Positions 1 to 18,943 of a stretch of 64,000 nucleotides of DNA are shown here, one piece after another. Position numbers and translations under genes: made by a program. The number at the start of each line of letters is the position of its first letter. The first letter of the stretch is position 1. The notes beneath the pieces were generated by a model. That model worked only from the letters and a program-made list of their open reading frames with translations. It was not told where the DNA came from and made no database searches. This DNA comes from Fibrobacteria bacterium (GTDB taxonomy: Bacteria; Fibrobacterota; Chitinivibrionia; Chitinivibrionales; FEN-1185): the NCBI GenBank assembly GCA_037447435.1, contig JBBIGR010000024.1:1-64000 (forward strand), read 5' to 3'.

Positions 1-712
1 GGAGCGAACGGACCGAATCCTTGTCGTGTTTAAATACATTCCGGCATGTTACGGTACGACGATAATGATCGAGTAACATCCGCAGCTTTGACTGTTTCAA
101 TACCATGCCGTAAACTTGAAGAAATCGTTCGGATGCGGCATCAACAGTTGCCGGAGTCAACGCAATGACTAAGCCTTCGGGTTCGATCGAGCGTTCCGGA
201 TCAGCTGCAACGGTTTTGTTTTGCAAGGTCCTAAAAAAATTCCAGGAAAATACGATACCGGTCAAAACGGCAATTCCTAAAAGAAAAAAACTTCCCAATC
301 CATGAAGATAAACGAAAAATGCGCAAATGAATTTTGGCAGTATGCTTGCAAAAATAAGGCCGGTTCCTGAAAAAAGTAATACGATGGTGCAAAGAATCGC
401 TAGTTGAGCATAGCGTCTTCCAAAACGCGATTTTATTATAAATCCGAATAGGTCATTTTCCCAAAAAAACTGTATGGAAACCGATCGTTTTACCCAATAG
501 GCGTACACTGCCGATATAAGCAATAATAATCCTATGCCCATATGCAAATGCAAAATTTCCAAAGATCGCGGTGCTATGATCCGATAAAATTCAGGAACCC
601 CAAAAGTCATTCCGGTTACAAAGAGAATCGCGATTGCAGCACATATCGGAATGGGCCCGGATAATGTATCTGCAAACTTTCGCGATGTTTTTGCGGACAC
701 GGATTCAATCAT
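1..712 (-). CDS. Cytochrome b-like 4-TM membrane protein with soluble C-terminal extension (partial, runs off window start)
   Basis: Not in the ORF track. Manual translation from ATG 712 is open to base 2: MIESVSAKTSRKFADTLSGPIPICAAIAILFVTGMTFG...ILHLHMGIGLLLLISAVYAYW...LAILCTIVLLFSGTGLIF...FFVYLHGLGSFFLLGIAVLTGIVFSW. It has four hydrophobic helices with His at the start of helices 2 and 4. RBS GAGGA overlaps the upstream TGA. Confidence 0.7.
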   Translation of the reverse strand, partial: MIESVSAKTSRKFADTLSGPIPICAAIAILFVTGMTFGVPEFYRIIAPRSLEILHLHMGIGLLLLISAVYAYWVKRSVSIQFFWENDLFGFIIKSRFGRRYAQLAILCTIVLLFSGTGLIFASILPKFICAFFVYLHGLGSFFLLGIAVLTGIVFSWNFFRTLQNKTVAADPERSIEPEGLVIALTPATVDAASERFLQVYGMVLKQSKLRMLLDHYRRTVTCRNVFKHDKDSVRSL

Positions 713-723
713 TTGACCGTTCC

Positions 724-1377
724 TCAAAACGAATACTGGTTTGGGTGGCATTCGGTGCAACGGCTTTTGTCCGTAATATCGGATATTTTTTTCATTGACG
801 GACATTTATTTGAAGAACTGTGGCAATTCGCGCAGGTTTTTTCCAGCGGAAACGGAGTATCATACTTTTCCGGCTTTACGTGCACGACCCCCTGATGACA
901 TGCGACGCACCCCATCGGATCGTCGAAGGACACCTTTTTCAAAATCGCGTTGTTTTTGAATTTACCTGCGGTGTGGCATATTCTGCAGCTGTCTCGCAGT
1001 GCGGAATGTTTGCTATGCGCAACAACGAGGCCGATCGATTTCAATTTTTCGGGTAATGCGGCTTCCGCGAGGTTATTGAATTTGTCCATTGCGTTATGGC
1101 ACGATGTGCAGGTCCTGGTTGTGGGCCGGCCGGCTCGATGCGCGTTTTTATAGGAAAATGTCAGAGAATAAAGGAGTTCTTTCCATAAAGCCTCGAAACC
1201 ATTGGCATATTTATCAAAATGACAATCTTCGCAACCGACGTTTTTCCTGCCGTGCGAACTGTTGTCGTACATTGTTGTCACTGAAGAATCGGTGTGGCAG
1301 TACAAACAGGCTTCTTTGCCGAACGATGGAAGACACACTGCGAGAATTAAGAACCATTCCAATCGGATTTTTAGCAT
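724..1377 (-). CDS. 7-heme c-type cytochrome, NapC/NirT/NrfH-like
   Basis: 7 CxxCH (CLYCH, CEDCH, CTSCH, CRICH, CVACH, CANCH, CTECH); hydrophobic N-terminus; SSH..VGCEDCH and CHQGVVH patterns typical of NapC/NrfH. Confidence 0.85.
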   Translation of the reverse strand: MLKIRLEWFLILAVCLPSFGKEACLYCHTDSSVTTMYDNSSHGRKNVGCEDCHFDKYANGFEALWKELLYSLTFSYKNAHRAGRPTTRTCTSCHNAMDKFNNLAEAALPEKLKSIGLVVAHSKHSALRDSCRICHTAGKFKNNAILKKVSFDDPMGCVACHQGVVHVKPEKYDTPFPLEKTCANCHSSSNKCPSMKKISDITDKSRCTECHPNQYSF

Positions 1378-1428
1378 TGTTTATCCAGACTGCTTTTTGT
1401 TTAATAAAGAAAAACAGTACTTAAAAGG

Positions 1429-2685
1429 TTATGGGTTTACTTGCACTGAAACAGAGTCCGTCAATCCGGAGTACCGCACGTAAACAGTGGCGTTTCCTGG
1501 GGAAATGCCGTTCAAATTGCCCAACGCATTGACCGTAACGATCATCGGATTGCCGCTTGACCACACAGGACGCGACGTAAAATCAATAGCCCCGTTCAAA
1601 TTGGTGAGCGCCTGTGCGGTGAGCTGAAGGCTCGAAGCCACTTTCATTTCAACCGGATTGGGATCGATAACTATGTTGCTTAAAAAGCCGATTGTGTCGA
1701 AGCCTGCCGAATGGAAATGACAATCCCAGCATGCGCGTCCGAAACGATGATTTCCCGGTTCACCCGTATTTGCATGCGCATCTTTTCCCGGCGCATGGCA
1801 GGCATCGCAGGCGCCGTTTTTTACAGAGTCGACCGAAAACATGGAGGAATCGGTGAAGTTCACGGTTTCGGGTCCTGCGCCTAATCCTCCGTCAATCGAC
1901 TCGCGGATCATGGCAAGATTCTTAGTCCCGTGCGGATCATGACAGGTTTTGCATTCAAAATTATAATTGAAACGTTTTGATATTCTTGAAGAGTGTATCG
2001 CGGCTTTTGAAAAAGCAACATATCCGAGTTTGCCTTTGGATTGTTGAGTGGGGGCATGGCAATCAAGACATAAGGCGCTTGAGCCGTTATTGATACGTAA
2101 TAAACTGTCTCCGGCCGATGGGGCGAAATGTCCCGGGCCGTTGGGATCGTGACACACGTCGCACCGGTAACCCGGTCCGTTTTTTCCGTGTAACGTTTGC
2201 GCGTATCCTTTCGTATTGCCGTGTCCGCTCGGCGCATAATACGCCATAATGTTTTTGGCCTGCTTGGATTTTACAATAGACGATCCGTCGTGGCAGCTTT
2301 CGCAGAAATTTCCATCATGAAGCCAGGTGCCTGCGGGTTTTTTCCAATATGTTTTGGCTTTTTCGGCACCGCTGCCGTGACACCCGCTGCAAACGGTCGT
2401 TGTTGTCAGTGGTTTTTCATCTTTCATCAAGACGATACTGTCTATTACGGAATGTGACGATCGATCGTCGTGATGGCAATCTTCACACGTCGAACCGCCG
2501 AAGGTGGCGTTTGACACGTGCAGATCGTGAAACCCGGTCGTCATAACGTATCGGTTGTTTGTTCCATGGCAAACCGCACAGTCGGTGCCGTTGACGTCGA
2601 GAGTCACTTGCGGCTTTGGAGCCTCCTGCACGCAACGCGTGAGAAACAAAGCGACAACTATGAAAAGCAAACGCATAGGTTTCAC
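1429..2685 (-). CDS. 9-heme c-type cytochrome, probable lipoprotein with C-terminal Ig-like (Big_2-type) domain
   Basis: 9 CxxCH; signal MKPMRLLFIVVALFLTRC ending in Cys; C-terminal ~85 aa with LQLTA..VWSSGNP.IVTVN..G....PGNATVYVRY pattern. Confidence 0.85.
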   Translation of the reverse strand: MKPMRLLFIVVALFLTRCVQEAPKPQVTLDVNGTDCAVCHGTNNRYVMTTGFHDLHVSNATFGGSTCEDCHHDDRSSHSVIDSIVLMKDEKPLTTTTVCSGCHGSGAEKAKTYWKKPAGTWLHDGNFCESCHDGSSIVKSKQAKNIMAYYAPSGHGNTKGYAQTLHGKNGPGYRCDVCHDPNGPGHFAPSAGDSLLRINNGSSALCLDCHAPTQQSKGKLGYVAFSKAAIHSSRISKRFNYNFECKTCHDPHGTKNLAMIRESIDGGLGAGPETVNFTDSSMFSVDSVKNGACDACHAPGKDAHANTGEPGNHRFGRACWDCHFHSAGFDTIGFLSNIVIDPNPVEMKVASSLQLTAQALTNLNGAIDFTSRPVWSSGNPMIVTVNALGNLNGISPGNATVYVRYSGLTDSVSVQVNP

Positions 2686-2690
2686 GGCGA

Positions 2691-3485
2691 TTATTTACCT
2701 TTGTGACAGGTCGTACATGATTGTGTTCCGTTAATCAGATTCTGGTGATTAAGAATTCTCCCCCAAGACCGCTGATGACAGGCATCGCACGATTGATGGG
2801 AATCATGGCAAACAAAACATTGGTTTGCGGGGCCGAGGGCATCGAATTGATGAATGTAAAGATAGTTGTGCGGGTGCACGTCCTCGGTGATTTTCCCCTG
2901 ATGACATTTATCGCAAAAATTATTGACATGGCATGTTTCGCACGACCGGGGCGCTTGTTTATATAAATCTCCATGTCCTTCTCGGTCGTCCATTCCATGG
3001 CTCATCACGATTGCCGGATCCGAATGGCAGAATTCACAATCGTTGCGCACATTGTCTTTTTCATGACAATCAACGCATGCGCTCATAATGGGCATATCTT
3101 TCCGGTCAAAATAATAAGTTTTATCGATATATCCGTGACAGGTTTTGCATTCAATCGAATCGTTGATATGGACTTTATGGTTAAACTTGATTTCCCGCTT
3201 GGGTTTTAACGGTGTTTTGCCGTTTGGGTTAGTATGGCAAACAGAACAACTATCCTGATTTTTAATGTCGTGACAACCGGTTTTATTGCACAGTTGTTGG
3301 TCGGTATAATTGTCGTCCCTCGCTTTAGTACTTTTCATGATATTCGTGTGACATGCGTCGCATTTACCGGCATTATAAATCAATTCATGCCGAGAATGCG
3401 TGAAAATCAATGTGTCATAGGATGATGTTCCAAAGCTCGGCACCGTAAGCAGCAACGTCATGAATGAAAACAACAGTTTTTTCAT
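2691..3485 (-). CDS. Periplasmic 10-11-heme cytochrome c (c3/c7-like repeats)
   Basis: 10 CxxCH plus one CxxxxCH (CNKTGCH); FTHSRH and FNHKVH distal-His motifs; Sec signal ending SFG; ATG overlaps upstream TGA. Confidence 0.9.
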   Translation of the reverse strand: MKKLLFSFMTLLLTVPSFGTSSYDTLIFTHSRHELIYNAGKCDACHTNIMKSTKARDDNYTDQQLCNKTGCHDIKNQDSCSVCHTNPNGKTPLKPKREIKFNHKVHINDSIECKTCHGYIDKTYYFDRKDMPIMSACVDCHEKDNVRNDCEFCHSDPAIVMSHGMDDREGHGDLYKQAPRSCETCHVNNFCDKCHQGKITEDVHPHNYLYIHQFDALGPANQCFVCHDSHQSCDACHQRSWGRILNHQNLINGTQSCTTCHKGK

Positions 3486-4876
3486 TGGTTGCCCCTCAGT
3501 GATGTGCGGGCATGCCGGTTTGAATAACCTATGTTAAAATCAATAGAGAAACGTACGTCGTGTTGCACAAAAATGTCGGTTCTATCCTGGACACATACTC
3601 GCAGGAGGGGGAGTGCCGATTGGAACGGCTTGAAGTTTGCAAATGCGTAATATCCGAAAAAATCGCTTGCTCCGTATTGACCGTAATAAACGTCAAGTTT
3701 TGCGTAATCGGCACCGGCTCCAACCGACATTATTTTAAAAATCGGGTAATTTCCCGATAGGCTGACAAGGCTTGCGGCTGTTACGGAACCGAATCGAAAC
3801 GATACGGACGCATCCACGTATGTTGACGACAAGGCAATTTTAGCCGTATGGACGGTATTATTCGAGAGAAGCATAAAATCATACTCACCCGTCACATACA
3901 GATGTTCCTTCGGTAACGGCTTAAGCCGCCATCCCGCATACGCACGTTGATAATTGAAAACATCGAAATAGTACATGGTCATGGAATCTGCAAACAAAGG
4001 ATTATGGTAATCGTATCCGATATAGGGCATATTCTGGTTCGAAAGGTAATATTCGCCTTTGAGCTTTGTCTCACTCAATTGTACCGTAGAGCCAAAGCTC
4101 GCTAGTCCTTGACCTTTAAGCACAAGGTTGCCCGGCATCCAGAATTTAATGTCGAGGCCGATGTCGTTTGCCGTTATGGAATTATTGACCATCGACCGTT
4201 CAAAACTCAGGTCAGCATACGACCGGTACCCGATAATCTGTTGCAGCTGGATAAAACCGGTAGAATTCTGAATGCCTACCAAGGTGCCATTGGAGTCGAC
4301 TCTCGCTCCGCTAAAACCGGATAGGGTGGTGTTATCCCCGAGCGCAATAGAGCCGCTCAAACCATCCATTTTAAAAAAATGAAATCCGGTGAAAACATTT
4401 TGTCGGCCCAACCGCGCATCCCGTATGATTCCTGCATCTCTCACCGTCGCGTTCAAGGTTTGCGTTCTCCAGAGAATGCTTGAGGAAGAAGTATCAAAAA
4501 TCCGAACATCCATATTACGCGTAATGCTAAATCGATCCAGGAAATCAATATTCGAGGAAAAAGAGAATTTGTTGTCCGGGCCTTGAAACAGATCCAGGGA
4601 TATGGATTGGACCTGTTGACCGTACTTGTCGTATACGACATTCGAATCGAGCGGGTTGGTTGTGGGATGGTCTTCACCGGAAACGGCAAATCGCGTGGTT
4701 GAATTTACGGAAAGCCCGAGATACTTTTCGGTTTCCACACGATCTGGCATCACGATTGCAAACGAGGATGAGGGACACAGGACTGTGCACCAAAGGAAGA
4801 ACAGCCCCGTGCCTATTGACAGACCGCAACGCGGAAGCGTTTCCGCAACGCGGTTAATTTTATTACCGGTTTTCAG
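3482..4876 (-). CDS. Outer-membrane beta-barrel (porin of putative porin-cytochrome complex); start extended to CTG 4876 (track start 4753)
   Basis: Alternating aromatic/hydrophobic strands and terminal strand FSIDFNIGY; sits between multiheme genes. The frame is open 41 codons upstream of 4753 and encodes a signal-peptide-like stretch ending SSFA. Confidence 0.7.
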   Translation of the reverse strand: MKTGNKINRVAETLPRCGLSIGTGLFFLWCTVLCPSSSFAIVMPDRVETEKYLGLSVNSTTRFAVSGEDHPTTNPLDSNVVYDKYGQQVQSISLDLFQGPDNKFSFSSNIDFLDRFSITRNMDVRIFDTSSSSILWRTQTLNATVRDAGIIRDARLGRQNVFTGFHFFKMDGLSGSIALGDNTTLSGFSGARVDSNGTLVGIQNSTGFIQLQQIIGYRSYADLSFERSMVNNSITANDIGLDIKFWMPGNLVLKGQGLASFGSTVQLSETKLKGEYYLSNQNMPYIGYDYHNPLFADSMTMYYFDVFNYQRAYAGWRLKPLPKEHLYVTGEYDFMLLSNNTVHTAKIALSSTYVDASVSFRFGSVTAASLVSLSGNYPIFKIMSVGAGADYAKLDVYYGQYGASDFFGYYAFANFKPFQSALPLLRVCVQDRTDIFVQHDVRFSIDFNIGYSNRHARTSLRGNQ

Positions 4877-5820
4877 AAGTTTGCTTTCTTTTCAGTGACT
4901 TCGATCGCGTCTTTGTCTTTGATGATCGGCATGGACTTATATAGTACCTTGACGACGATTTCACCGCTGCCAATTTTTGCGTCGTAGGTAAGGTCCAACT
5001 TCTTATCAACCGGAATGGAAGTGTCTTTTTTGTCTTTGTTATCGCCTTTTTCAAATACTTCCCGATGCATGTCGACGGTTTTTTCATTTTCGTCTTTTAC
5101 CGCAGTCATAATAAGAAGTTGCCTGCCGACAGTTCCGGAAGGAAGCGTGTGGCCGGCGCAATCGTTAGTGATCGTTACGTGAATTTTACCTTTATCAACC
5201 GTTACCGTTAGGTCGCGCACCGATTCTTGCAATGCCTTCAGATCGTATCCGCCGTAGGTTACATGTTGGAATACTTCTTTTGCAATTCCGCCCTTGGCTG
5301 CAGGACGTTTTACCGGTTTCATATGGCATTTTGCGCATGTGGAATAATTTTTCGAGCCTTCATGGGAGAACGAACTGGTCTTCCATTCTTCAGATGTATT
5401 CTTGTGGCACATCTGGCATGTCGAATTGTCTTTAAATTCGGACGTCGGTGCGGGATTGCATTCGCCTTTCGTATCTTTGAATGGGCCGAGCACTTTCTGG
5501 TTCTGGCGATGGCAGCTGATGCAGTTTACGCCGCTTTCCCTGTTTTCATCACGCAAGATATTTTCTTTCCCAATGCCGGTTTCGAAAATCGGTTTCGGCG
5601 CATGGCAAGGGAGGCATTCGGCTTTTGTCCGGTTTTGGGATTGCTCGGTAAACTGTTTTGATTTCCAAGCCTGGGCGTGCCGCGTCGTTTCCCATTCCTT
5701 ATAAATATCGGCATGGCATTCCTTGCACGATTCGGCATTGTTCCAATCTACTTTTGCAATTGCTCCCTGATACGAGCCGACGGCCAAGCCGCACAGCAAG
5801 GAAAATGTTACCAATCGCAT
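4873..5820 (-). CDS. Pentaheme cytochrome c (c554/c552-like N-terminus) with heme-free C-terminal domain
   Basis: 5 CxxCH (CKECH, CLPCH, CISCH, CQMCH, CAKCH); CHxxIYxEWxxxxH motif; AGHTLPSG; signal peptide; RBS GGAGG. Confidence 0.85.
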   Translation of the reverse strand: MRLVTFSLLCGLAVGSYQGAIAKVDWNNAESCKECHADIYKEWETTRHAQAWKSKQFTEQSQNRTKAECLPCHAPKPIFETGIGKENILRDENRESGVNCISCHRQNQKVLGPFKDTKGECNPAPTSEFKDNSTCQMCHKNTSEEWKTSSFSHEGSKNYSTCAKCHMKPVKRPAAKGGIAKEVFQHVTYGGYDLKALQESVRDLTVTVDKGKIHVTITNDCAGHTLPSGTVGRQLLIMTAVKDENEKTVDMHREVFEKGDNKDKKDTSIPVDKKLDLTYDAKIGSGEIVVKVLYKSMPIIKDKDAIEVTEKKANF

Positions 5821-5885
5821 TGTCGTACCTCCCGGTTAAATAAAAAACGATATCCCATTCGGTGAATACTTTCGATACTAAAGCG

Positions 5886-7739
5886 TCATTTTCCCACAAT
5901 GATTTTATAGGCGCTATTGGACGTTTGCGTCCGGATAGTCAATAAATACATTCCAGATTTTAGCCCTGCAAGCGAAAATTCATTTGCAGTTTCAGGACGT
6001 ATGAATCTGCTCCAAACCTTAACGCCGTTACAGGTAAACAAGGATACTGTCAACGATTTTCCCGCATTTGGCGGGACAGGGAAAGTCATTGCACCAATTG
6101 AAATTTTATTCCCTTTTTGTATATCGATTTGATTGATTACTTTAGCGCCCGGAACGACATTGATCCGTAAGAACAACGTGTCGGCCGCACCTTTACTGTC
6201 GGACGCTATAACGATAGTGGTGCACGATACGGATGTCGGGTCCGGAATAATTATGAGCGTATCAAGAGAAAAGGAGTACCAGGCCGTCGGCGTTAGAGGT
6301 AATTTCTTGAAAGAAAATAATATGGAGTCGCCGTTGGGGTCCGTGGCCGCGGCAATCCATTTCGTAATTGACCCGACGGGAGCATTGACCGACGACGCGC
6401 TTGTGATGACTGGAGGCGCATTGATTGCCGAGGGATTGAACACCGAAATTTTTAGGGCCAACGTATCGAGTCCGCCTTTACCGTCCGATGCATATACGTT
6501 CACCGTCGTGTTTTTTGATGATGCGGACGGGCCCATCGTGATCGTTGCATTGGAAGCTGTGATCCATGAAGGAAGGCCGGTAAATGAATAGGAAACAGCA
6601 TCCCCATTCGCATCGGTTGCATGCGCGGTCCAGGTTACTATAGAACCAATTCTCGCGGTAACCGTGTCCGGATTTGTAAAGACCGGGGGAACGTTCGTTA
6701 ATGGCGGACTGAAAACCGTTATCTTCAGTTTCAAAGTATCGAATCCAGTCTTACCGTCCGCTGCGATCACCGTTACCGTATCGTTTTTAGAGGTCGTCGT
6801 AGGGTTCATGATCAATGTTGCATTGGATACGGTTATCCAGGATGCTTGACCGCTAAATGAAAAGGTGATTCCATCGCCGTTGGCGTCGGTCGCCAAAGCG
6901 GTCCATGTGGTAGTGGCACCGATCTTCGCACTGACCGTGTCCGGGTTGGAAATGACCGGTGGAACATTTACCGCAGGCGGGTTGTAAACTTTAATTTTAA
7001 GTTTCAATGTATCCAAACCGCCTTTACCGTCGGACGCGATTGCGGTAACAGTATCATTTTGTGAAGATTCCGTGGGGTTCATGGTCAAAGTTGCATTGGA
7101 TACGGTTATCCAGGATGCTTGACCGCTGAAGGTAAAAGTTACGGGATCGTTATTTGGATCCGTTGCAAGTGCGGTCCAAATGGTTGTTGTGCCTATTCTT
7201 GCACCAACGGTATCCGGGTTCGTTATAACCGGCGGGGAATTCGTAGTGACAGCCGGCGCGGTGTATACGGCATTTATGTTTGTCAGGGCTGTAGCGGAGT
7301 TGCTTGAATCGGTACCGGCCTTTGTTTTTGAAGTTCCGTCTATTACTATGGAACCCACTGCGTGATAGGGTGTAGGGCCATCTTGACAAATTTCGATCCA
7401 ATATTTATACGTGCCGTTCGGAACGATATTTCCATCCGCACCTTTAAGGTTCCACGTCCCGGAGAAGGTTGCTTTTGAAGAAAGAGTCGCACTTGAAACC
7501 GCATCGACGCTCACGACATTCCCCGAAGCCGCCCGCCAGACTTTGAGGTGGTCATCATTTCTCTTGCTCCAAATTGCAAACGTTTGTTGTAAAATATTCG
7601 CTGAATTGGTGATCCACATCACCGCAGCGGTCGGACTCGAAATTCCGCTGGTAGCGGTCACTGTAAGGCCTGCGGCAAACACTGCTAAAAGCCAGCCCGA
7701 CAAACAGAGTATAGACACTATAGTACGCAACTGTTTCAT
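5886..7739 (-). CDS. Secreted DUF2271-domain protein with four cadherin/Ig-like repeats and a C-terminal sorting-like domain
   Basis: AVMWI..LKVW..VDAVSSAT..WNLKGADG.IVPNGTY..WIE pattern of DUF2271; four ~91-aa PPVxT...A.D.NGD...ASDGKGG.DTL repeats; tail LFTCNG...LKSGMYLL...KII. Confidence 0.75.
   Translation of the reverse strand: MKQLRTIVSILCLSGWLLAVFAAGLTVTATSGISSPTAAVMWITNSANILQQTFAIWSKRNDDHLKVWRAASGNVVSVDAVSSATLSSKATFSGTWNLKGADGNIVPNGTYKYWIEICQDGPTPYHAVGSIVIDGTSKTKAGTDSSNSATALTNINAVYTAPAVTTNSPPVITNPDTVGARIGTTTIWTALATDPNNDPVTFTFSGQASWITVSNATLTMNPTESSQNDTVTAIASDGKGGLDTLKLKIKVYNPPAVNVPPVISNPDTVSAKIGATTTWTALATDANGDGITFSFSGQASWITVSNATLIMNPTTTSKNDTVTVIAADGKTGFDTLKLKITVFSPPLTNVPPVFTNPDTVTARIGSIVTWTAHATDANGDAVSYSFTGLPSWITASNATITMGPSASSKNTTVNVYASDGKGGLDTLALKISVFNPSAINAPPVITSASSVNAPVGSITKWIAAATDPNGDSILFSFKKLPLTPTAWYSFSLDTLIIIPDPTSVSCTTIVIASDSKGAADTLFLRINVVPGAKVINQIDIQKGNKISIGAMTFPVPPNAGKSLTVSLFTCNGVKVWSRFIRPETANEFSLAGLKSGMYLLTIRTQTSNSAYKIIVGK
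6150..7243 (-). repeat. Four tandem ~273-bp intragenic repeats (cadherin/Ig-like modules)
   Basis: A 38-bp identical block at 6817-6854 and 7090-7127 (273 bp apart); protein repeats start PPVIT, PPVIS, PPVFT, PPVIT. Confidence 0.9.
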
Positions 7740-7851
7740 GCCGAAACTCCTTTACCAAATAGCATTTCCGATTGTGTTTTCATAGTGGGTGCCTCTATAC
7801 TACGACTGCATTGGCCTTTAACTGCTTCGTTAAGAATCCCGTAAAAATGAA

Positions 7852-8616
7852 TTAATTTCCTACAATGATTTTTTTCGAAATATTGTAATTTTTAGATGCA
7901 AAATTCAATAAATATGTGCCGGGACCGATTCCATCGATCGATATAGCGCTGGAATTATTGTTGTTTATCAAACCTTCCCAGATCTTTATGCCGTTACACA
8001 AATACAAAGAAACAACAAGAGACTTTTCGTGGGGAATTGTCACCACAGAGGATGTTTTTCCGATTGCAACATTGACTTTCATCAGATTCCCGGTTGAAAG
8101 AGGAAAAATCGGTTCCACTGAACCTGTTGCCGGTGCGGAGTAATCTGCCGATACATTAGAGATATTCGCTGCAGACGTAGTCGAATCGACACCGGCCTTT
8201 GTTTTTGAAGTTCCGTCAATGACGATAGAACCGACGGCGTGATAGGGCGTCGGACCATCTTGACAAATTTCGATCCAATATTTATACGTGCCGTTCGGAA
8301 CGATAGTACCGTCTGCACCTTTTAAATTCCAAGTTCCAGACATTGTTGCTTTTGATGCGAGTGTTGCACTTGAAACCGCATCGACGCTTAATTTATTGCC
8401 GGATACAGCCCTCCAAATTTTCAAATGGTCGCTGTCTCCTTTATCCCAAATTTTGAAAGTTTGTTGCAGAACATTTGCAGAATTGGTTATCCACATAACC
8501 GCCGTGCATTTGCTCGCTATTCCGCTCGTGGCCGTCACGGTTAATCCGGCGGCGGAAGTAAGCATCAATATTCCGGTGGATGCAATTAATAAAATCACCT
8601 TAATCAAACGATTCAT
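7852..8616 (-). CDS. Secreted DUF2271-domain protein (short paralogue) with C-terminal sorting-like domain
   Basis: N-terminal ~140 aa nearly identical to the 5886-7739 protein, including VDAVSSAT; tail LYLCNG...GPGTYLL...SKKII. Confidence 0.75.
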   Translation of the reverse strand: MNRLIKVILLIASTGILMLTSAAGLTVTATSGIASKCTAVMWITNSANVLQQTFKIWDKGDSDHLKIWRAVSGNKLSVDAVSSATLASKATMSGTWNLKGADGTIVPNGTYKYWIEICQDGPTPYHAVGSIVIDGTSKTKAGVDSTTSAANISNVSADYSAPATGSVEPIFPLSTGNLMKVNVAIGKTSSVVTIPHEKSLVVSLYLCNGIKIWEGLINNNNSSAISIDGIGPGTYLLNFASKNYNISKKIIVGN

Positions 8617-8673
8617 AGGGAAATCCTCTTTTTTTGAATTAGTAGTATTTCGTACAACCTTAACTGGAAAGGG

Positions 8674-9381
8674 TTAATGGTTCTCCAATTCAATTCTTGC
8701 TATCGTCGTATCGGAACCGGAGTTGATTTCCAATTCGTAATCAAGCGATTTCACTGAGCCGTTGGGCTGCGGTGAAAGTATCCTGAGTTTATATTCGCAT
8801 TCATTCTGTTCGCATTCGCCTTCGGGCAGGTCTTTGATTTCAAAAGCACCCGTCGAGTCGGTACGGGAAAGTTTTTCCAACCCATACACTTGAACGTATG
8901 CATTAGCAGGCAACCCGGTAAGGGTGATTTTGCCGTAAACTTTTACCGCCGGTTTTACGATGCGCGTTGCTAAAACAAGTGAATCCTGTTTGAATGAAAA
9001 TTTATAGAGTGTGGCCTGTGTTTTTACCTTATTATCATTTACTTCCAAACAATATGAATATCCCGTGTCAATTGATGCGATCGCAAAATGTCCGCAGGTA
9101 TCGGTGGTCATAGTTGCCAGGGTGTTTCCATTAGACAACGGTTTTGCCCCGGAAGTGTCGGAAAGATATCCTTGCGTTCGTAGCCTGACAATAGCCCCTT
9201 TGACCGGCGTACTGTCCGCATAGATAACGTGCCCGGAAATAATACCGTTTCCAACGCCTGTTCCCGAACCGTTGCCCGAAGCAACAGGGGAAGTGGTGCA
9301 CGAAGCGACCAATAGTATTACGGCAAAAGCCATGAAGCATATTGTTTTCAATACGGCGGATGTCGGTGTCCGATCATTCAT
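8674..9381 (-). CDS. Lipoprotein with carboxypeptidase-regulatory-like beta-sandwich domains (start 9381 or 9390)
   Basis: Lipobox LVASC; Gly-rich linker; ISGHV...PVKGAIVRL and TDSTGAFEIKDLPEG motifs; overlaps the stop of the TIGR02147 gene. Confidence 0.7.
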   Translation of the reverse strand: MNDRTPTSAVLKTICFMAFAVILLVASCTTSPVASGNGSGTGVGNGIISGHVIYADSTPVKGAIVRLRTQGYLSDTSGAKPLSNGNTLATMTTDTCGHFAIASIDTGYSYCLEVNDNKVKTQATLYKFSFKQDSLVLATRIVKPAVKVYGKITLTGLPANAYVQVYGLEKLSRTDSTGAFEIKDLPEGECEQNECEYKLRILSPQPNGSVKSLDYELEINSGSDTTIARIELENH

Positions 9382-10225
9382 GATTTTCATCAATGCAATC
9401 CTTTGCAATTGGATAAAGCTGGAAGTTTACATGGTAAACCCTTCCGACATCGCTGTCATTGGAAACCATTTGCAAAATTTCGTCCCTGAATTCCTGGATT
9501 CGTTTCTTGATTTGTTCAAAACCCGTTTGGGAAATATTTACCGTGACATGCGAAAACTCGCGTTGCTCCAATGGAATGTCGTCGAGTGCGTTTTGCGCAA
9601 TGGACAACACTTGTTTATGGTACCGGCGAATGGCAAATGATTGATTCTCGTTTTTGGTATTGAGTAAGGGTGACGATTGGACAAAGCAATGGTCCGAGTT
9701 CAATTGGATCAATCCAAGACGTTTCAGGAGCGCAATGGATTTCCTGATTTTTGCCGGGGTGACTTTTTTCTCCAAGATCCGGGATAGTGATTCGAAATCA
9801 AGCGGTTCTTTTTTGTCTTTGATCAATTCGCGAATTGCGGGATGATACCATTCTCTGAAAAATTCGAGTTTGTCTTGTTCGAGAAATACGACATTTTTAT
9901 TCGACCGTTGCGAAGCAATGAGGCCGAAATAATAGTTTTTGTCGACACTGGTTTTTGCTTGTGCAAAAAAAACGAGATATGAAAAATATTCCGTTTCGTT
10001 TTTAGTAAAGCCAAGTCCGGTGGCGATTTTCGCAAGAGCATCTTTGCTGAGATTGCGTTTCCCATCCATGACAAGCTTCAGAAAATTCGGAGATGTAAAT
10101 CCTAAAGAACCGGCCATCAACCGGTGAGAATAACCGCGAACATTTTCTTTTTGCCACGTATAGTATGCCAAAAGAAAAGCCCGGTAATCGATAAATTCAT
10201 ATAGTGACGGTGGATGCATATTCAA
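9374..10225 (-). CDS. TIGR02147 family protein (Fibrobacter paralogous family, HTH-like N-terminus/DUF4423); start may be ATG 10219
   Basis: DYRAFL..YY, SHRLMA..LGFTSPNFL..VMDGKRNLS, WYHPAIREL, REFS, VYHVNFQLYP motifs. Confidence 0.9.
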   Translation of the reverse strand: MNMHPPSLYEFIDYRAFLLAYYTWQKENVRGYSHRLMAGSLGFTSPNFLKLVMDGKRNLSKDALAKIATGLGFTKNETEYFSYLVFFAQAKTSVDKNYYFGLIASQRSNKNVVFLEQDKLEFFREWYHPAIRELIKDKKEPLDFESLSRILEKKVTPAKIRKSIALLKRLGLIQLNSDHCFVQSSPLLNTKNENQSFAIRRYHKQVLSIAQNALDDIPLEQREFSHVTVNISQTGFEQIKKRIQEFRDEILQMVSNDSDVGRVYHVNFQLYPIAKDCIDENHE

Positions 10226-10529
10226 ATTTGATAGGTTTGTTAAACGTTAAAACTGCCTTGCAAAATTATTCCTTAAAGCTAAACTTTATTGATAGATATA
10301 ATATACTTATAATTATGAATTAAATTTCTAAAACATGTGAACAATTTATCATAATATATCACATAAATCAGAAAGTGTCAAATTAAATTTTTCACCTAGT
10401 ATACAAAAAAGTATGTAATGTATTGAAAAATAATTAGATAAAATAAAGATAAAAAAAATATAATAAAAGCTAGTATACAATAAATTTGTTGGTGCAAAGA
10501 ATAATTTATTGAAAAAAGTGGGGTAGCCA

Positions 10530-10574
10530 TAATGAAAAGGTTCCTTGATTTTTTTTCAAGGAACCTTTTCATTA
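10530..10574 (-). terminator. Perfect 19-bp inverted repeat, probable terminator of the 10608 gene
   Basis: TAATGAAAAGGTTCCTTGA-N7-TCAAGGAACCTTTTCATTA, ~35 bp past the stop codon. Confidence 0.7.
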
Positions 10575-10607
10575 ACCTAAAAACGAGCAAATTTTAACAC
10601 CCTTACA

Positions 10608-12059
10608 TCAGAACGAACCTTCGAAAATAAGCTCGGGGCGTGATGTCAGCTTTGAATCGTAAACCGTTTTTGGATTCGTAATAAAGAATCGAATCCGTGG
10701 CTTGATAACGAAATTTTTATTCACTGCCCATCCGTATTTTAAATCGAAAAATGGATACGAATCGTCTACCGTAGAATCTTTTGCGTCTTTATCGGTACTG
10801 TAATTGAAATCGAAATCAAGTTTTCCAGGGCCGAGTTTGACCGTTGTACCAACATTGAGGTTCATGCCCGAACGTTCGGATGGCTTCACGGCAATGGTTG
10901 ACGTATCCGAAGGGTTTAACGGGTTTTTTAGAGTCCTTGCTCCTGCAGCATAGGAATAGGTGTTGGCATTTTGAGCGTAACCGAATCCCGCTCTGAAATT
11001 TGCCATTTCGCAACATTTATAGGTGAAGTCGGCACCTGCGCCGATTTCCATATCTCCTTGGTTTGTTGCTTTATTAAAGCTGCGATCGACGACGGCATAA
11101 ACCTGCGGGGTTGCCGTAAGCGCATTGTACCCAAAAGGCAATTCACCGAGAAATTCGAGAGCGTCGGCATTGGTATTCCACGTGTTTGCGCCCGCGGCAA
11201 CTGCACGTTGTTCGATGATTGCGCCCATCAAATCGACACCGAGCTTAATGTCATCTTTCAGGATCGGCGCGCCGATTCTGAGGCCGGTTTGGCTAAGGTT
11301 TGTAACCGTTCCCCAAGGAGTATGAGCGGCGCCTATATATTTTTTGTTGTTAAGGATCGAAACGCCAAGCAAATCCATTAGCGGCGTACCTCTTACTGGA
11401 ATTATACCTGCCTGAATGTGCAAATAACCCGGGTCCCATTGTGCAAAAGCAAGACTGAACCAGGGTGTCATCGGATCTCTGTTTTTATAATAATTTCCCG
11501 GTATCCCTGTTGCGATATCGGTTCCATACCAATCGTTACCGATTTCAAACTGTAACAACGCCTGATCGTTCGGTCTGACTTTTACACCGAGTTTATAGCC
11601 AAGAGGATATTGGAAAGTGGCGCTCAGTGAATCGATCCCGTTTTTCGCTTTGTTGCTGCATATTTCTTCGCGAAGACGAAGCTGTGCCATTCCGTACCAG
11701 GTTAACAATGGCGATGCGGCAGCTGGCGAAGCCGGACATGCCGGACAGGTTGAATGAGATTTACAAGCTGTTTTGCCTTCCATAGGGCAAGCGGGCTTTT
11801 TATCGTTTTTTTGCGCTTCCGTTGCGACTATCGGAGCCGGGGAGGGGGAAGTTGTTTGCGTTTCGGTTGTTTTTTCGGTCGATGTTGCTGGCTGAGAATT
11901 TTCAACCGGAGCCGGTGCGACAGCTGGTTGTGCCGCGGCAGGTGCAGGAGCAACAGCCGGTTTTCCGGTTGTTGCAGGGGCTGTTGTCGATGTTGAGTCG
12001 CTAGCCAAAACAAATCCGCTAAAAACAAGTACTGTTAAAAAAGCACAAATCCTACGCAT
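10608..12059 (-). CDS. Outer-membrane beta-barrel protein with Pro/Ala/Thr-rich N-terminal linker
   Basis: Start re-assigned to ATG 12059 (RBS GGAGG, signal MRRICAFLTVLVFSGFVLA); amphipathic strands; C-terminal ELIFEGSF. Confidence 0.7.
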   Translation of the reverse strand: MRRICAFLTVLVFSGFVLASDSTSTTAPATTGKPAVAPAPAAAQPAVAPAPVENSQPATSTEKTTETQTTSPSPAPIVATEAQKNDKKPACPMEGKTACKSHSTCPACPASPAAASPLLTWYGMAQLRLREEICSNKAKNGIDSLSATFQYPLGYKLGVKVRPNDQALLQFEIGNDWYGTDIATGIPGNYYKNRDPMTPWFSLAFAQWDPGYLHIQAGIIPVRGTPLMDLLGVSILNNKKYIGAAHTPWGTVTNLSQTGLRIGAPILKDDIKLGVDLMGAIIEQRAVAAGANTWNTNADALEFLGELPFGYNALTATPQVYAVVDRSFNKATNQGDMEIGAGADFTYKCCEMANFRAGFGYAQNANTYSYAAGARTLKNPLNPSDTSTIAVKPSERSGMNLNVGTTVKLGPGKLDFDFNYSTDKDAKDSTVDDSYPFFDLKYGWAVNKNFVIKPRIRFFITNPKTVYDSKLTSRPELIFEGSF

Positions 12060-16053: not shown

Positions 16054-16779
16054 ATGCAAAAGATAGTATTATCGCCGACCCTGGAAGATTATCTCGAGGC
16101 AATTCTTCAGATAACGGCTAAGCATCAAGTCGCCCGATCGATGGAAATTGCGGAAAAGCTACATGTCAAGCGATCGTCGGTCACTGTTGCGCTTCGATCG
16201 TTGGCCGATAAAGGACTCATCAATTATCAGGTACGATCGTTTGTCACATTGACCGAAAGCGGCCTGAAAGCCGCGAAATGCGTTGATAAACGGCATCATA
16301 TCCTGCATGACGTTTTTACCGATATTTTGAATCTTCCCGAAGACGATGCAGATGCGGCGGCTTGCGCAATGGAGCACGGCATGACGGAAAATGTTTGCAG
16401 GAAAATGACCGCACTTTTAATGGCCTTTAAAAACAATAATCAAGATACAAAAAAAGTTTCCGACTCTCTTGAGGCGAATTCGCAAAAAATCGACTGCAAT
16501 AAAAATTGCAATTACATCCCTTCGCCCGTTTTTACCAAGAGCGAAGCTCAATTATTCGACTTGAATTCTATAAATCCGGGCGAATCGGCAATTATAGATC
16601 GAATTATCGGCACAGGGGTTTTAAAAAAACGCCTTCGCGAAATGGGGATCACCAGAGGGCAAAAAATTCTGGTTGTCCGGTCCGCGCCGCTCGACGACCC
16701 GATCCAAGTGCGGGTCAGAAATTTTAATCTTTCGTTGCGACGGGAAGAAGCTGCGACCGTATTGGTTGAAAAATGTTGA
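16054..16779 (+). CDS. DtxR/MntR-family metal-dependent repressor fused to FeoA domain
   Basis: EDYLEAI, HTH, RH, ACAMEH; C-terminal RLREMGI..G......APLDDPI.VRV...LSLRREEA. Confidence 0.92.
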   Translation: MQKIVLSPTLEDYLEAILQITAKHQVARSMEIAEKLHVKRSSVTVALRSLADKGLINYQVRSFVTLTESGLKAAKCVDKRHHILHDVFTDILNLPEDDADAAACAMEHGMTENVCRKMTALLMAFKNNNQDTKKVSDSLEANSQKIDCNKNCNYIPSPVFTKSEAQLFDLNSINPGESAIIDRIIGTGVLKKRLREMGITRGQKILVVRSAPLDDPIQVRVRNFNLSLRREEAATVLVEKC

Positions 16780-16807
16780 TTGTAATATTTGTAAATAGGA
16801 TGTCGTT

Positions 16808-18943
16808 ATGGGTTTGAAAATAGCGTTGGCTGGGAATCCGAATGCCGGTAAAACGTCGTTGTTTAACCGGATGACCGGAGCATCTCAGAAAGTAGGGAAT
16901 TGGGGAGGCGTGACCGTTGAGATTAAAGAAGGAAACGCCAAAGTAAACGATGAACCGGTCACGATAATCGATTTGCCGGGGACGTATTCGATGAGCACGT
17001 GTTCTTTGGATGAGGCTGCTGCGAGATCGTACTTGTTGGAAGAAAAACCCGACGTGGTCATCGACGTGATCGACGCGACAAATTTGGAACGGCATTTGTA
17101 TTTGACCGTGCAATTGCTTGAACTCGGAATACGGCCCGTACTCGCGCTCAATATGTGGGACGAAGTAAAAACCAAAGGTATTGAAATTGACATACCGCTA
17201 CTCGGAAAATTATTGGGTGTTCCAATAATGGCGACGGACGGCAGAAAAGGGGACGGCGTGGAACGTCTGCTGGCGACCGCGGTCGATTTCGGGCATCAAA
17301 AACAAACGGTATTTGAAAATAAAGTGCAATTAAAACTGCCAAAAGAAATTGAAAAAGCCATTGATACTCTTTCGGATCACGTCGGAACATTCTACAATGG
17401 GAACAATCCCCGTTGGATAGCAATGCAACTTTTAGAGCACGATAAAGCCGTCGAGATCATGTTTTCCCAAATAAAAAACGACCGTTCCGTTCTTGATTTG
17501 CGCGATACAATCGATAAACAAATTGCCTCCCTATTCGGAGAAACGCCGGAAGGTTTTATTGCAGAAGCCCGCTACGGTTTTATTGCCGGCGCGGTCAAAG
17601 AATCGGTAAAGGTCGAAGTTAAAATAAACCGGATAGAATTTTCGGAAAAAATCGATTCGGTTTTGACTCATCGGTTTTGGGCATATCCGATTTTCCTTTT
17701 GTTCTTGTGGTTGCTTTTTCAAGCGACTTTTAAACTCGGTCAATTTCCCATGCATTTGATCGAGCTGGTTTTTTCCTGGCTAAACTCGATCGCAAGCCAT
17801 AGCTTACCTGCGGGAGTAATAAGGGACCTTTTGACAGACGGCATTATTGCGGGAATAGGGGGAGTGATTGTTTTCTTGCCGAACATTCTCATTTTATTCT
17901 TCGGCATTTCGATCATGGAAGATACGGGCTATATGGCTCGTACCGCGTTTATAATGGATAAACTCATGCATCGTATCGGATTGCACGGCAAAAGTTTCAT
18001 TCCGATGATCATGGGACTCGGCTGTTCGGTTCCCGCAATAATGGCCGCACGTACTCTGGAATCAAAACCGGACAGAATAAAAACTATTTTATTAACCCCG
18101 CTTATTTCCTGTTCGGCCCGGCTCCCGGTATTTGTTTTATTCGCCGGTACGTTCTTTCCTAATCATGCGGGAAATATCGTTTTTTTATTTCAGGTCGTTT
18201 TGGGGTTTTCGGCCTTTATTTGCATGGCTATTTTGTTCAAGCATACGCTGTTTACAAACAGTGAGGATTATCCTTTCGTCATGGAGTTGCCCCCGTACCG
18301 GCTCCCGACTTTTCGCAGCATACTCATCCATATGTGGCATAAAACCGAACATTATTTAAAAAAAATGGGCGGAGTTGTATTGTTGTTTTCCGTGGCGTTA
18401 TGGTGGCTTGGGGCGTATCCAAAGTCAAGAGGTATCGAAGAAAAATATTCAATTGAAATCGAGAGTATTAAAAACGACAAAACAATGAGTGATGATGGAA
18501 AAAAGACGGCCCTTGTAAAATGCGAAAATGAAAAGCACGCTTCGGTTATGGAGCATACCTATATCGGCACTATTGGGAAAATGTTGGAACCCCTTGTTAA
18601 ACCGTTCGGCACCGATTGGCGCGGCGCGGTATCGTTGGCAACCGGGTTTGTGGCCAAAGAAATCGTCGTAGGATCAATGGGTGTTTTGTATGCCGCAGGC
18701 AACGACCATTCCGATAATAAACAAGGACTGCGTCAGAAACTTCAAAAAGTGTATACGCCTCTTTCTGCATTCGCTTTCATGCTTTTTGTTCTTTTATATA
18801 CGCCGTGCATGGTTGCTTTGGTCACTGCAATGCGAGAACTCAAGGATTGGAAATGGTCTGTTTTTTCTGTTTCCTATCAACTGGCACTTGCATGGATTTG
18901 CGCGACAGCTGTTTTCCAAATCGGGACGTTGCTACGGTTATAA
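16808..18943 (+). CDS. feoB: Ferrous iron transporter FeoB
   Basis: GNPNAGKT, VGNWGGVTVE, DLPGTYS, NMWD; gate motifs GCSVPA and LYTPC. Confidence 0.98.
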   Translation: MGLKIALAGNPNAGKTSLFNRMTGASQKVGNWGGVTVEIKEGNAKVNDEPVTIIDLPGTYSMSTCSLDEAAARSYLLEEKPDVVIDVIDATNLERHLYLTVQLLELGIRPVLALNMWDEVKTKGIEIDIPLLGKLLGVPIMATDGRKGDGVERLLATAVDFGHQKQTVFENKVQLKLPKEIEKAIDTLSDHVGTFYNGNNPRWIAMQLLEHDKAVEIMFSQIKNDRSVLDLRDTIDKQIASLFGETPEGFIAEARYGFIAGAVKESVKVEVKINRIEFSEKIDSVLTHRFWAYPIFLLFLWLLFQATFKLGQFPMHLIELVFSWLNSIASHSLPAGVIRDLLTDGIIAGIGGVIVFLPNILILFFGISIMEDTGYMARTAFIMDKLMHRIGLHGKSFIPMIMGLGCSVPAIMAARTLESKPDRIKTILLTPLISCSARLPVFVLFAGTFFPNHAGNIVFLFQVVLGFSAFICMAILFKHTLFTNSEDYPFVMELPPYRLPTFRSILIHMWHKTEHYLKKMGGVVLLFSVALWWLGAYPKSRGIEEKYSIEIESIKNDKTMSDDGKKTALVKCENEKHASVMEHTYIGTIGKMLEPLVKPFGTDWRGAVSLATGFVAKEIVVGSMGVLYAAGNDHSDNKQGLRQKLQKVYTPLSAFAFMLFVLLYTPCMVALVTAMRELKDWKWSVFSVSYQLALAWICATAVFQIGTLLRL

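Follow-up and report, generated by a model that had tools for sequence, protein, structure and literature searches.

A probable porin–cytochrome conduit with an Hmc-like inner-membrane feed in a Fibrobacterota genome

The window analysed here is a 64,000-nucleotide stretch of a Fibrobacteria bacterium genome (GenBank assembly GCA_037447435.1, contig JBBIGR010000024.1; G000:C24:1-64000 in our numbering, where G000 is the source genome of 5.05 Mb in 96 contigs), and its base 1 is the end of contig C24. Positions 1 to 5820 hold six tightly spaced minus-strand open reading frames (ORFs), which an earlier note on this DNA had read as a complete electron conduit made of a porin and multihaem cytochromes. 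All six were found at the coordinates given there. In the order of transcription, they are as follows.

4873..5820, minus strand: pentahaem cytochrome c that carries a signal peptide and, at the C-terminus, a non-haem domain (315 aa, 5 CxxCH).
3482..4876, minus strand: predicted outer-membrane beta-barrel, matching no named family, that would form the cytochrome sheath (from a fold model; 0 haem motifs).
2691..3485, minus strand: periplasmic 11-haem cytochrome c, the predicted wire inside the barrel (264 aa; 10 CxxCH and one CX4CH, from motif count and alignment).
1429..2685, minus strand: nine-haem cytochrome c whose signal h-region is followed at once by a Cys and which ends in a Big_2 domain, predicted at the outer face (418 aa, 9 CxxCH).
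724..1377, minus strand: heptahaem cytochrome c, predicted periplasmic partner of the membrane cytochrome b-like protein (217 aa, 7 CxxCH).
1..805, minus strand: N-terminal 268 aa of a fusion protein, with a four-helix cytochrome b561-family-like domain and the start of a DsrK-like cytoplasmic domain (the contig ends within the gene; G000:C5:1-957 carries the remainder).

From the pentahaem gene (4873-5820) to the heptahaem gene (724-1377), the numbers of CxxCH motifs were 5, 0, 10, 9, and 7, and a CX4CH was present in the 264-aa protein, which reproduces the 31 CxxCH and one CX4CH counted previously. The intergenic spacings along the cluster were 119 (-4 with a CTG start at 4876), -4, 5, 51, and -82 nt. 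The 82-nt overlap of the heptahaem gene with the next gene has an equal counterpart in the coordinates of L007, a metagenome contig carrying an orthologous cluster. Frames with at least two CxxCH (stop-to-stop, at least 60 aa) numbered 15 genome-wide, with four here, seven on contig C5, two on C12, and two on C45. Since 11 of these 15 belong to this locus and the adjoining C5, the density of cytochromes is far above that expected by chance. The architecture is of the conduit type that the earlier note had recognized, with a predicted barrel, a periplasmic multihaem cytochrome, a Cys-anchored multihaem cytochrome, and an inner-membrane cytochrome c/b pair.

Eleven haems are assigned to the 264-aa protein, because its CX4CH (CNKTGCH) was kept in five of five orthologues and aligned with a canonical CxxCH in both of the two paralogues. 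Its 22 His amount to exactly two for each haem, and its length to about 24 aa per haem. Judged from the sequence, this is the signature of a putative electron wire and not of an enzyme. The best solved relatives by sequence were ActA of alternative complex III (ACIII) and c7-type stretches. The 11-haem protein had no match at E ≤ 0.01 to TIGR03508 (MtrA/DmsE, cut-off 192 bits), against which the nine-haem and heptahaem proteins scored 35.7 and 37.4 bits, respectively, and PF11854 (MtrB_PioB) had no match anywhere in G000. Both results agree with the earlier opinion that the parts are not MtrA/MtrB orthologues.

The barrel product matched no NCBIfam family and, at E ≤ 0.01, no Pfam family. A single-sequence search of a collection of 5.8 billion proteins gave eight relatives including the protein itself, a profile search of the same collection returned eight proteins and none new, and ten relatives were found at E ≤ 0.001 among 1.84 billion representatives. 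The relatives from the single-sequence and profile searches carried no informative name ('hypothetical protein' or unnamed). When genome contigs were scanned with a profile of the barrel alignment, 92 pattern matches were obtained, of which none was confirmed. The AlphaFold2 (AF2) model, built from a 15-row alignment, had a mean predicted local distance difference test score (pLDDT) of 71; 251 of its 423 residues scored at least 70, and DSSP assigned 22 strand elements. All of the 29 Foldseek matches of this model at E ≤ 0.001 were outer-membrane barrels. In VIA-align, the largest numbers of residues were aligned to barrels of 22 to 26 strands. The alignment to MtrB (6r2q_B) had a Z of 12.8 over 358 residues, that to the PapC usher covered 361 residues, and those to TonB-dependent transporters covered 320-340 residues (root-mean-square deviation, rmsd, ~5), while 18-strand Occ porins were aligned over 260-280 residues (rmsd ~7).

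These three analyses bear out the barrel fold that the earlier note had assumed for the product of 3482-4876, which is modelled as an outer-membrane barrel of ~22 strands. By the usual barrel geometry, ~22 strands would correspond to a Calpha-to-Calpha diameter of ~40 Å, between those of OmbB (20 predicted strands) and MtrB (26 strands), and such a barrel might be able to hold a cytochrome. The start of the 11-haem gene overlaps the barrel stop by 4 nt. An overlap of the barrel stop with the decahaem start was present in seven of the seven pairs examined (4-13 nt), a second barrel type included. Because the overlap recurs in every pair, barrel and 11-haem protein are better regarded as a stoichiometric pair than as chance neighbours.

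For the nine-haem protein, matches above the cut-offs were found to PF22113 (MtrC/MtrF domain II/IV; 34 bits, cut-off 30) and PF02368 (Big_2; 28.8 bits, cut-off 22.8), and the Big_2 domain is typical of cell-surface proteins. The Cys after its hydrophobic signal segment was kept in three of three orthologues. A location at the outer face is predicted for it. The pentahaem protein matched PF13435 (44 bits) and PF14522 (37 bits), and its gene lay directly before the barrel gene in five of six loci. In one Fibrobacterota genome, G291 (L023:7358-8315), the pentahaem gene was split into a 195-aa ORF with the five haems and a 101-aa ORF, which could reflect a frameshift, an assembly error, or a real split.

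The heptahaem family had a mean column identity of 72% over an alignment of five sequences. The scores of the heptahaem protein were under the cut-offs of both PF03264 (17.9 versus 24.1 bits) and TIGR03153 (NrfH; 34.4 versus 134.2 bits), placing it outside the NapC/NirT/NrfH family, and its likeness to NrfH was limited to the N-terminal ~75 residues. The earlier label 'NapC/NrfH-like' is weakly supported.

The next gene runs off the contig. Its 584-aa orthologue in L007 matched C24 with residues 1-269 and C5:1-954 with residues 287-584. Because this orthologue spans both, contigs C24 and C5 are taken to abut, with ~17 codons missing. Pfam at E ≤ 10 gave nothing meaningful for the window b-like fragment or for the 235-aa membrane protein that follows on C5, and a protein-atlas search by features gave no usable match for the fusion. 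The assignment of the membrane domain comes instead by descent: the window protein was 28% identical (E = 1e-10) to a syntenic protein of L023, and this short orthologue (229 aa) matched PF01292 at 55.2 bits (cut-off 30.1). The short orthologues of L023 and L025 have four transmembrane His, in helices 1 and 2 and as an Hx13H pair in helix 4, a dihaem pattern. The name 'cytochrome b-like' given to the window protein earlier can thus be kept by descent. The structural neighbours of the fusion were of the CCG/DsrK type (TM-scores ~0.43-0.45), to be taken as a lead only given the poor model (pLDDT 0.52). This lead is backed by the NCBIfam match of the C-terminal part to DsrK (E = 1.5e-9 in G000 and 2.6e-14 in L007, with scores far below the cut-off).

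The earlier note had placed the whole path from the quinone pool to the cell surface within positions 1-5820. We found that the operon crosses the contig gap onto C5, where four more redox-membrane genes belong to it, and that conserved partners extend upstream to position 10225. On C5, the remainder of the fusion is followed by the 235-aa TmcC-like membrane protein (E = 1.2e-7), a 253-aa HmcB-like iron–sulfur (Fe-S) protein (237.4 bits, equivalog cut-off 420; Fer4_11), and a 627-aa HmcC-like NrfD protein fused to a hexahaem c3-type domain (257.8 bits, cut-off 550). By these scores, the HmcB- and HmcC-like proteins are related to Hmc and are not equivalogs. The inner-membrane feed would accordingly be a composite of Hmc/Tmc/Dsr-like proteins with the heptahaem/cytochrome b-like pair, and not a NapC of the CymA type.

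The survey of gene order that had been proposed for this locus gave a positive result. In two metagenome contigs, L007 and L008, the whole order was kept, from the upstream regulator gene to the NrfD-hexahaem gene, with barrel identities of 77% and 50%, respectively. The core module was also present in three other Fibrobacterota genomes (G243, G291, and G006). In G291 and G006, the order was heptahaem, short cytochrome b, pentahaem, barrel, and 11-haem, and in G291 the 11-haem gene was followed by that of a 13-haem Cys-anchored cytochrome. In G243, Hmc-like genes were divergent from the barrel and decahaem genes, and the outer cytochrome was not adjacent. Compared with L007, the ratios of nonsynonymous to synonymous substitution rates (dN/dS) of the cytochromes and the barrel were 0.035-0.07, with dS saturated, and that of the pentahaem gene was 0.04.

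Taken together, these features make it fairly probable that the locus is a Pcc-like porin–cytochrome conduit with an Hmc-like feed, leading from the inner membrane out to the surface of the cell. In such a conduit, an inner-membrane module would oxidise menaquinol or, via the DsrK-like domain, a cytoplasmic donor; this module would consist of the heptahaem protein, the b-like/DsrK-like fusion, the TmcC-like protein, the HmcB-like Fe-S protein, and the HmcC-like NrfD-hexahaem protein. Electrons would then cross the periplasm, probably with the pentahaem protein as shuttle, and would pass into the all-bis-His wire of 11 haems, which is predicted to lie within the barrel as MtrA lies within MtrB. 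They would leave through the Cys-anchored nine-haem/Big_2 cytochrome and be taken up by Fe(III)/Mn(IV) minerals, by humic matter, or by a partner cell.

A number of observations weigh against this interpretation. The AF2 model of the 11-haem protein, from a seven-row alignment, had a mean pLDDT of 44 and was unusable. In the barrel model, the first ~100 residues were of low confidence, so that the strands are 18 confident and ~4 uncertain ones. The barrel is rare and patchy in the phylum: its profile matched 11 of 296 genomes at E ≤ 0.001, G000 included, with strong matches in four of the 296 (G000, G243, G291, and G006), and the single-sequence search found it in two of 41 relatives, one of them G000, and in no same-genus genome out of five. 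Every match to a named redox family was under its curated cut-off. The window b-like domain has only His 86, 88, and 166 in or beside its helices, versus four in the short orthologues, which leaves its haem content uncertain, and the G000 DsrK-like domain is without three Cys common to L007, L008, and L022. The fusion is also the fastest-evolving gene of the set (48-53% amino acid identity to L007, dN/dS 0.34).

The predicted outer-face location of the nine-haem protein is the weakest point of this reading. Of the earlier term 'lipoprotein', the conserved Cys stands, while the residue before it is R, R or Q (Q in L008), which is not a classical lipobox. This atypical lipobox would suit another explanation, that of a purely periplasmic Hmc/Tmc-type network for a soluble acceptor or donor, with the barrel being a solute porin or an unrelated, co-transcribed protein. 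The HmcB, HmcC, TmcC, and DsrK proteins of sulfate reducers do partner periplasmic cytochromes, and no surface-export signal was identified. Periplasmic multihaem chemistry exists elsewhere in this genome, at C12:97577-99570 (L038), where an NrfH (156.6 bits, cut-off 134.2) adjoins a 519-aa pentahaem NrfA-like protein (255 bits, under the cut-off); the organism probably also reduces nitrite to ammonium. Against a periplasmic network stand the overlap of barrel and 11-haem genes in all seven pairs, which holds for two barrel types sharing only ~23 bits, and the size of the barrel, which exceeds general porins of 16-18 strands by aligned coverage. The Big_2 end of the nine-haem protein also points to the cell surface, and the cluster is without a catalytic subunit for a soluble acceptor. 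We therefore consider a purely periplasmic role unlikely and retain the conduit reaching the surface as the preferred reading.

The 5' end of the barrel gene raises a separate difficulty. No ATG, GTG, or TTG follows the stop at 4892-4894 until the GTG at 4753 is reached. Upstream of this GTG, the barrel frame stays open as far as 4891, and a good signal peptide (...GLSIGTGLFFLWCTVLCPSSSFA/IVMPD) is encoded there, which a start at GTG 4751-4753 would drop. The L007 orthologue starts with ATG, where the window has ACG at 4838-4840. The start at 4876 given by the earlier note is a CTG codon, and the candidate non-canonical starts are this CTG (4874-4876), overlapping as CTGA with the TGA that ends the pentahaem gene, and an ATT at 4856-4858. 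Logan contigs of run X1 (record 5, 4798-5474), a second assembly, were identical to the window, including the ACG. The data sets found to cover this stretch were two DNA runs of one study, of which X1 is one, and no RNA data; this second assembly is probably from the same sample as the window. The X1 contigs covered 9-4634 and 4798-6000 with 0 differences and left 4635-4797 uncovered. They fragment over 4235-5474, where the depth falls from ~9.5 to 2.5-5.5. The break-up around the barrel 5' end, together with the lost start, may reflect strain-level variation.

Because the start codon of the barrel is non-canonical, the function of the conduit in this particular genome is in doubt, and the organism may produce little of the barrel or none. 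One could go further and suppose that the locus is decaying here, with the barrel start and the ligands of the fusion lost, so that the conduit is dead in this genome and working in relatives. The change of ATG to ACG, the three Cys gone from the DsrK-like domain, and the fall in X1 depth as a hint of strain variation would all fit decay, and a paralogous cluster on C5 could make the window cluster dispensable. Against this stands the state of the genes themselves, as all of the ten or more reading frames were intact, with 0 internal stops and 0 frameshifts. The barrel has a dN far below its dS compared with L007 (dN/dS 0.07, dS saturated), which argues that the ACG change is recent, tolerated, or a minor variant. 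In addition, the in-frame CTG and ATT lie upstream, the CTGA overlap could allow coupled re-initiation, and the change is a single base in a metagenome bin of depth ~5, which may be a minor variant or an error. Decay is thus the most improbable of the explanations weighed here, and the conduit remains the reading we favour.

The paralogous conduit cluster lies at C5:30619-40870 (locus L010 extends to 44130), ~30 kb past the junction with window base 1. It encodes, in order, an 11-haem NapC/NrfH-like protein, a five-haem lipoprotein, a 421-aa barrel-like protein, a 10-haem protein that is 32% identical to the window 11-haem protein, a seven-haem lipoprotein, a 19-haem protein fused to a PF01292-like domain (E = 2e-4), and a three-haem protein. 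The window and C5 barrels were considered as close paralogues and rejected, as BLASTP gave nothing and the profile score was ~23 bits; they may be remote relatives. Directly after this cluster come ResB, two CcsA-like genes, and haem-synthesis genes, the latter read by eye. Haem c maturation, which the earlier note had asked about, is thereby accounted for by System II genes at C5:41038-44112 (PF05140, ResB, 222.8 bits; PF01578, CcsA, 149.3 and 54.9 bits). In a set of 41 relatives, the ResB profile matched 18 and the decahaem profile matched 11, namely G000, all five same-genus genomes, G006, and four of family f4. The decahaem-profile matches in G002, G003, G004, G024, and G029 each contained one in-frame TGA or TAG, which could represent selenocysteine, as in some Geobacter multihaem selenoproteins, or gene boundaries.

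The direction of electron flow is not set by the sequence. MenA was present in the genome (253 bits), from which a menaquinone pool is deduced, and PF02621 of the MqnA/futalosine family had no match in G000. The part of C5 between the two clusters contains acs, sdhCAB, citrate synthase, sucCD, korABG, a sigma-54 regulator, and nqr-like genes. Because genes for acetate activation, the tricarboxylic acid (TCA) cycle, and an Nqr-like complex are nearby, outward flow during organic-acid oxidation is favoured. The same conduit might also run inward, carrying electrons from Fe(II), a cathode-like mineral, or a syntrophic partner to the quinone pool or, via the DsrK-like domain, to the cytoplasm. Porin–cytochromes of the Mto/Pio and PCC3/PCC4 types have been proposed for Fe(II) oxidation (PMC5566968), and the sequence leaves the direction free. 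A ferrous-iron uptake pair is located ~10 kb from the cytochrome cluster, at 16054-18943 on the plus strand of the window, where a DtxR-type repressor fused to FeoA is followed by FeoB. The paralogous barrel module of the same-genus genome G005 stands after [NiFe] hydrogenase-like genes, indicating that the partners of such modules vary. In that genome (L035, G005:C52:279000-298500), the hydrogenase-like genes at 5546-11763, read by eye only, comprise a maturation protease and the small (with a twin-arginine translocation, Tat, signal) and large subunits, and are followed by the second-type barrel, an 11-haem protein, and a seven-haem lipoprotein. On the other side, the acetate-activation, TCA-cycle, and Nqr-like genes on C5 suit the oxidation of organic acids with an external acceptor. 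No genes for carbon fixation or a high-potential oxidase were seen in the region, at which no dedicated search was aimed, and the cluster is not of the PCC3/PCC4 type (WX3HX13H in none of eight proteins). Inward flow therefore appears distinctly unlikely to us, and the outward-directed conduit is retained below.

Upstream of the pentahaem gene, four further minus-strand genes complete the conserved neighbourhood.

9374..10225, minus strand: TIGR02147/DUF4423 protein, the likely regulator of the cluster by position only (TIGR02147, 247 bits versus 50; PF14394, 125 bits).
8674..9408, minus strand: small secreted protein that has a CarboxypepD_reg-like domain and is probably a lipoprotein (PF13620, 34.4 bits versus 32.3).
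7852..8616, minus strand: DUF2271 protein of 254 aa with a C-terminal sorting domain of the type IX secretion system (T9SS) type (PF10029, 29.1 versus 27.3; TIGR04183, 20.7, under the cut-off of 23).
5886..7739, minus strand: DUF2271 protein of 617 aa, containing four repeats of ~100 aa and ending in a T9SS sorting domain (PF10029, 24.5, under 27.3; TIGR04183, 30.8 versus 23).

We take TIGR02147 ('Fsuc_second') to be a Fibrobacter succinogenes paralogous family. Its gene and the CarboxypepD_reg gene held the same upstream place in L007, L008, and L025. In L007 and L008, orthologues of the 617-aa DUF2271 gene adjoined the pentahaem gene on its upstream side, and the arrangement of DUF2271 genes with the cluster was found in three of three long-form loci and in none of the three other loci. 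According to one study, DUF2271 is flavinylated by ApbE at a conserved [S/T]GA[S/T], as shown experimentally (PMC8238504). The motif DAVSSAT was invariant in four of four DUF2271 proteins (window, L007, and L008), and its SSAT departs from the published motif at one position (S for G). The genome encodes an ApbE (219 bits, on contig C47), the T9SS protein SprA on C8 (513 bits summed over the frame), and three secretins. By TIGR04183, and with a T9SS in the genome, the 617-aa protein is a predicted T9SS type A cargo, and it is possible that a surface flavoprotein is a partner of the conduit. Upstream of the regulator in L008 (L008:3-2517), a DUF3570 protein was identified (PF12094, E = 7.8e-29). 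DUF3570 is the other published ApbE substrate. The same stretch also holds a small thioredoxin-like ORF and a CcdA/DsbD-like membrane ORF, both read by eye.

These neighbours allow a bolder version of the outward conduit, in which it would pass electrons to ApbE-flavinylated DUF2271 proteins displayed by the T9SS, would be fed by the Hmc-like module from both cytoplasm and quinone, and would use a barrel family found nowhere else. We consider the whole of this hybrid respiration rather unlikely. If true, supposed obligate polymer fermenters would respire minerals or humics via an undescribed cytochrome-to-flavoprotein relay. Apart from this version, the DUF2271 proteins with their T9SS tags provide a testable link between cytochrome-based and flavin-based extracellular electron transfer.

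Fibrobacterota are regarded as fermentative degraders of cellulose and chitin. The earlier note had likewise described the lineage as fermentative, and the closest named records with the heptahaem family are in keeping with this lineage, as all three are titled Fibrobacterota, Chitinivibrionales, or uncultured Fibrobacterota; the remaining matches in named records had 27% identity and were of the Nitrospirota type. According to a 2016 phylogenomic study, major parts of an electron transport chain are missing from those Fibrobacteraceae and Chitinivibrionia genomes that it covered (PMC4704652). Our literature searches, whose scope did not include supplements, found no publication linking Fibrobacterota to porin–cytochrome systems. 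If the conduit is real, some subsurface Fibrobacterota would respire extracellular acceptors, which would change their modelled role in carbon and iron cycling. The barrel would add an independent family to the cytochrome sheaths (MtrB, OmbB, Ext, and the PCC3 porins) and inform on what is required to hold a haem wire.

By sequence, the locus is placed outside the Mtr, NapC/NrfH, and PCC3 families. It would resemble Shewanella MtrCAB (6R2Q) in principle, with a slim all-bis-His wire in a large barrel meeting a surface cytochrome, and it differs from MtrCAB in having ~22 strands versus 26, and System II maturation with no Ccm genes. PCC3/PCC4 and the peat EET1-4 clusters are like it in being divergent porin and multihaem clusters known from the genomics of uncultured or non-model bacteria, with an inner-membrane protein in the cluster. 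For PCC3, the median haem counts are 34 and 21, and the inner-membrane protein has five helices with two WX3HX13H (PMC5566968). Membership in PCC3/PCC4 was considered for the present cluster and rejected, since WX3HX13H was found in none of the eight membrane proteins of this cluster type and the haems number nine and 11. The peat clusters are reported, in a 2026 preprint, from Acidobacteriota and Verrucomicrobiota only, and its text contains no word that starts with 'Fibrobact' (10.64898/2026.05.27.727921).

Other known systems resemble single modules. The inner-membrane pair is like Geobacter CbcBA, a heptahaem c-type protein with a four-helix b-type protein resembling a quinone oxidoreductase. 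CbcBA is described as a heptahaem protein with a four-helix dihaem b-type protein, one b-haem ligand of which is thought to come from the c-type partner (10.1101/2021.04.15.440034). Here the order is c then b, the b-like domain is fused to a DsrK-like domain, and there are fewer His ligands; the likeness is one of build. The 19-haem protein on C5, fused to a PF01292-like domain, has a CbcL-like build. The remainder of the feed is like the Hmc, Tmc, and DsrMKJOP complexes of sulfate reducers, with CCG/DsrK-like, TmcC/NarI-like, HmcB-like four-cluster Fe-S, and HmcC-like NrfD proteins together with a c3-type multihaem domain. Unlike in those complexes, the Fe-S protein is without a visible Tat signal, the domains are fused differently, and an outer-membrane module is attached to the complex. 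All scores lie far under the equivalog cut-offs, and the region showed no genes for the reduction of sulfite or sulfate. With two DUF2271 proteins in a conserved cluster and a genomic ApbE, the upstream genes are like the published ApbE-flavinylated DUF2271 systems (PMC8238504). They differ from these in the SSAT motif, the lack of an adjacent apbE or PepSY-like gene, the T9SS domains, and the porin–cytochrome neighbours.

The closest comparison in layout is that with Geobacter Pcc (ombB-omaB-omcB). The likeness is one of layout. Reported values for Pcc are 18-22 predicted strands, 45 kDa for the porin, and 27 kDa for the periplasmic cytochrome (PMC4282303). Both systems have the order barrel, periplasmic multihaem cytochrome, and outer multihaem cytochrome, with a regulator gene upstream. 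The sizes are also alike, at ~47 kDa here versus 45 for the barrel and ~29 kDa versus 27 for the periplasmic cytochrome. The barrel model has 22 strand elements, ~4 of which lie in the low-confidence first 100 residues, against the range of 18-22 for Pcc. The present locus departs from Pcc in its haem counts, in the Big_2 domain on the outer cytochrome, in the pentahaem gene before the barrel, and in carrying an inner-membrane module in the same operon. Its regulator is of the TIGR02147/DUF4423 type, unlike Geobacter OrfR/OrfS, which are TetR-type. The number of membrane-spanning haems would be ~20 in both systems, 11 + 9 here and 8 + 12 in Geobacter Pcc.

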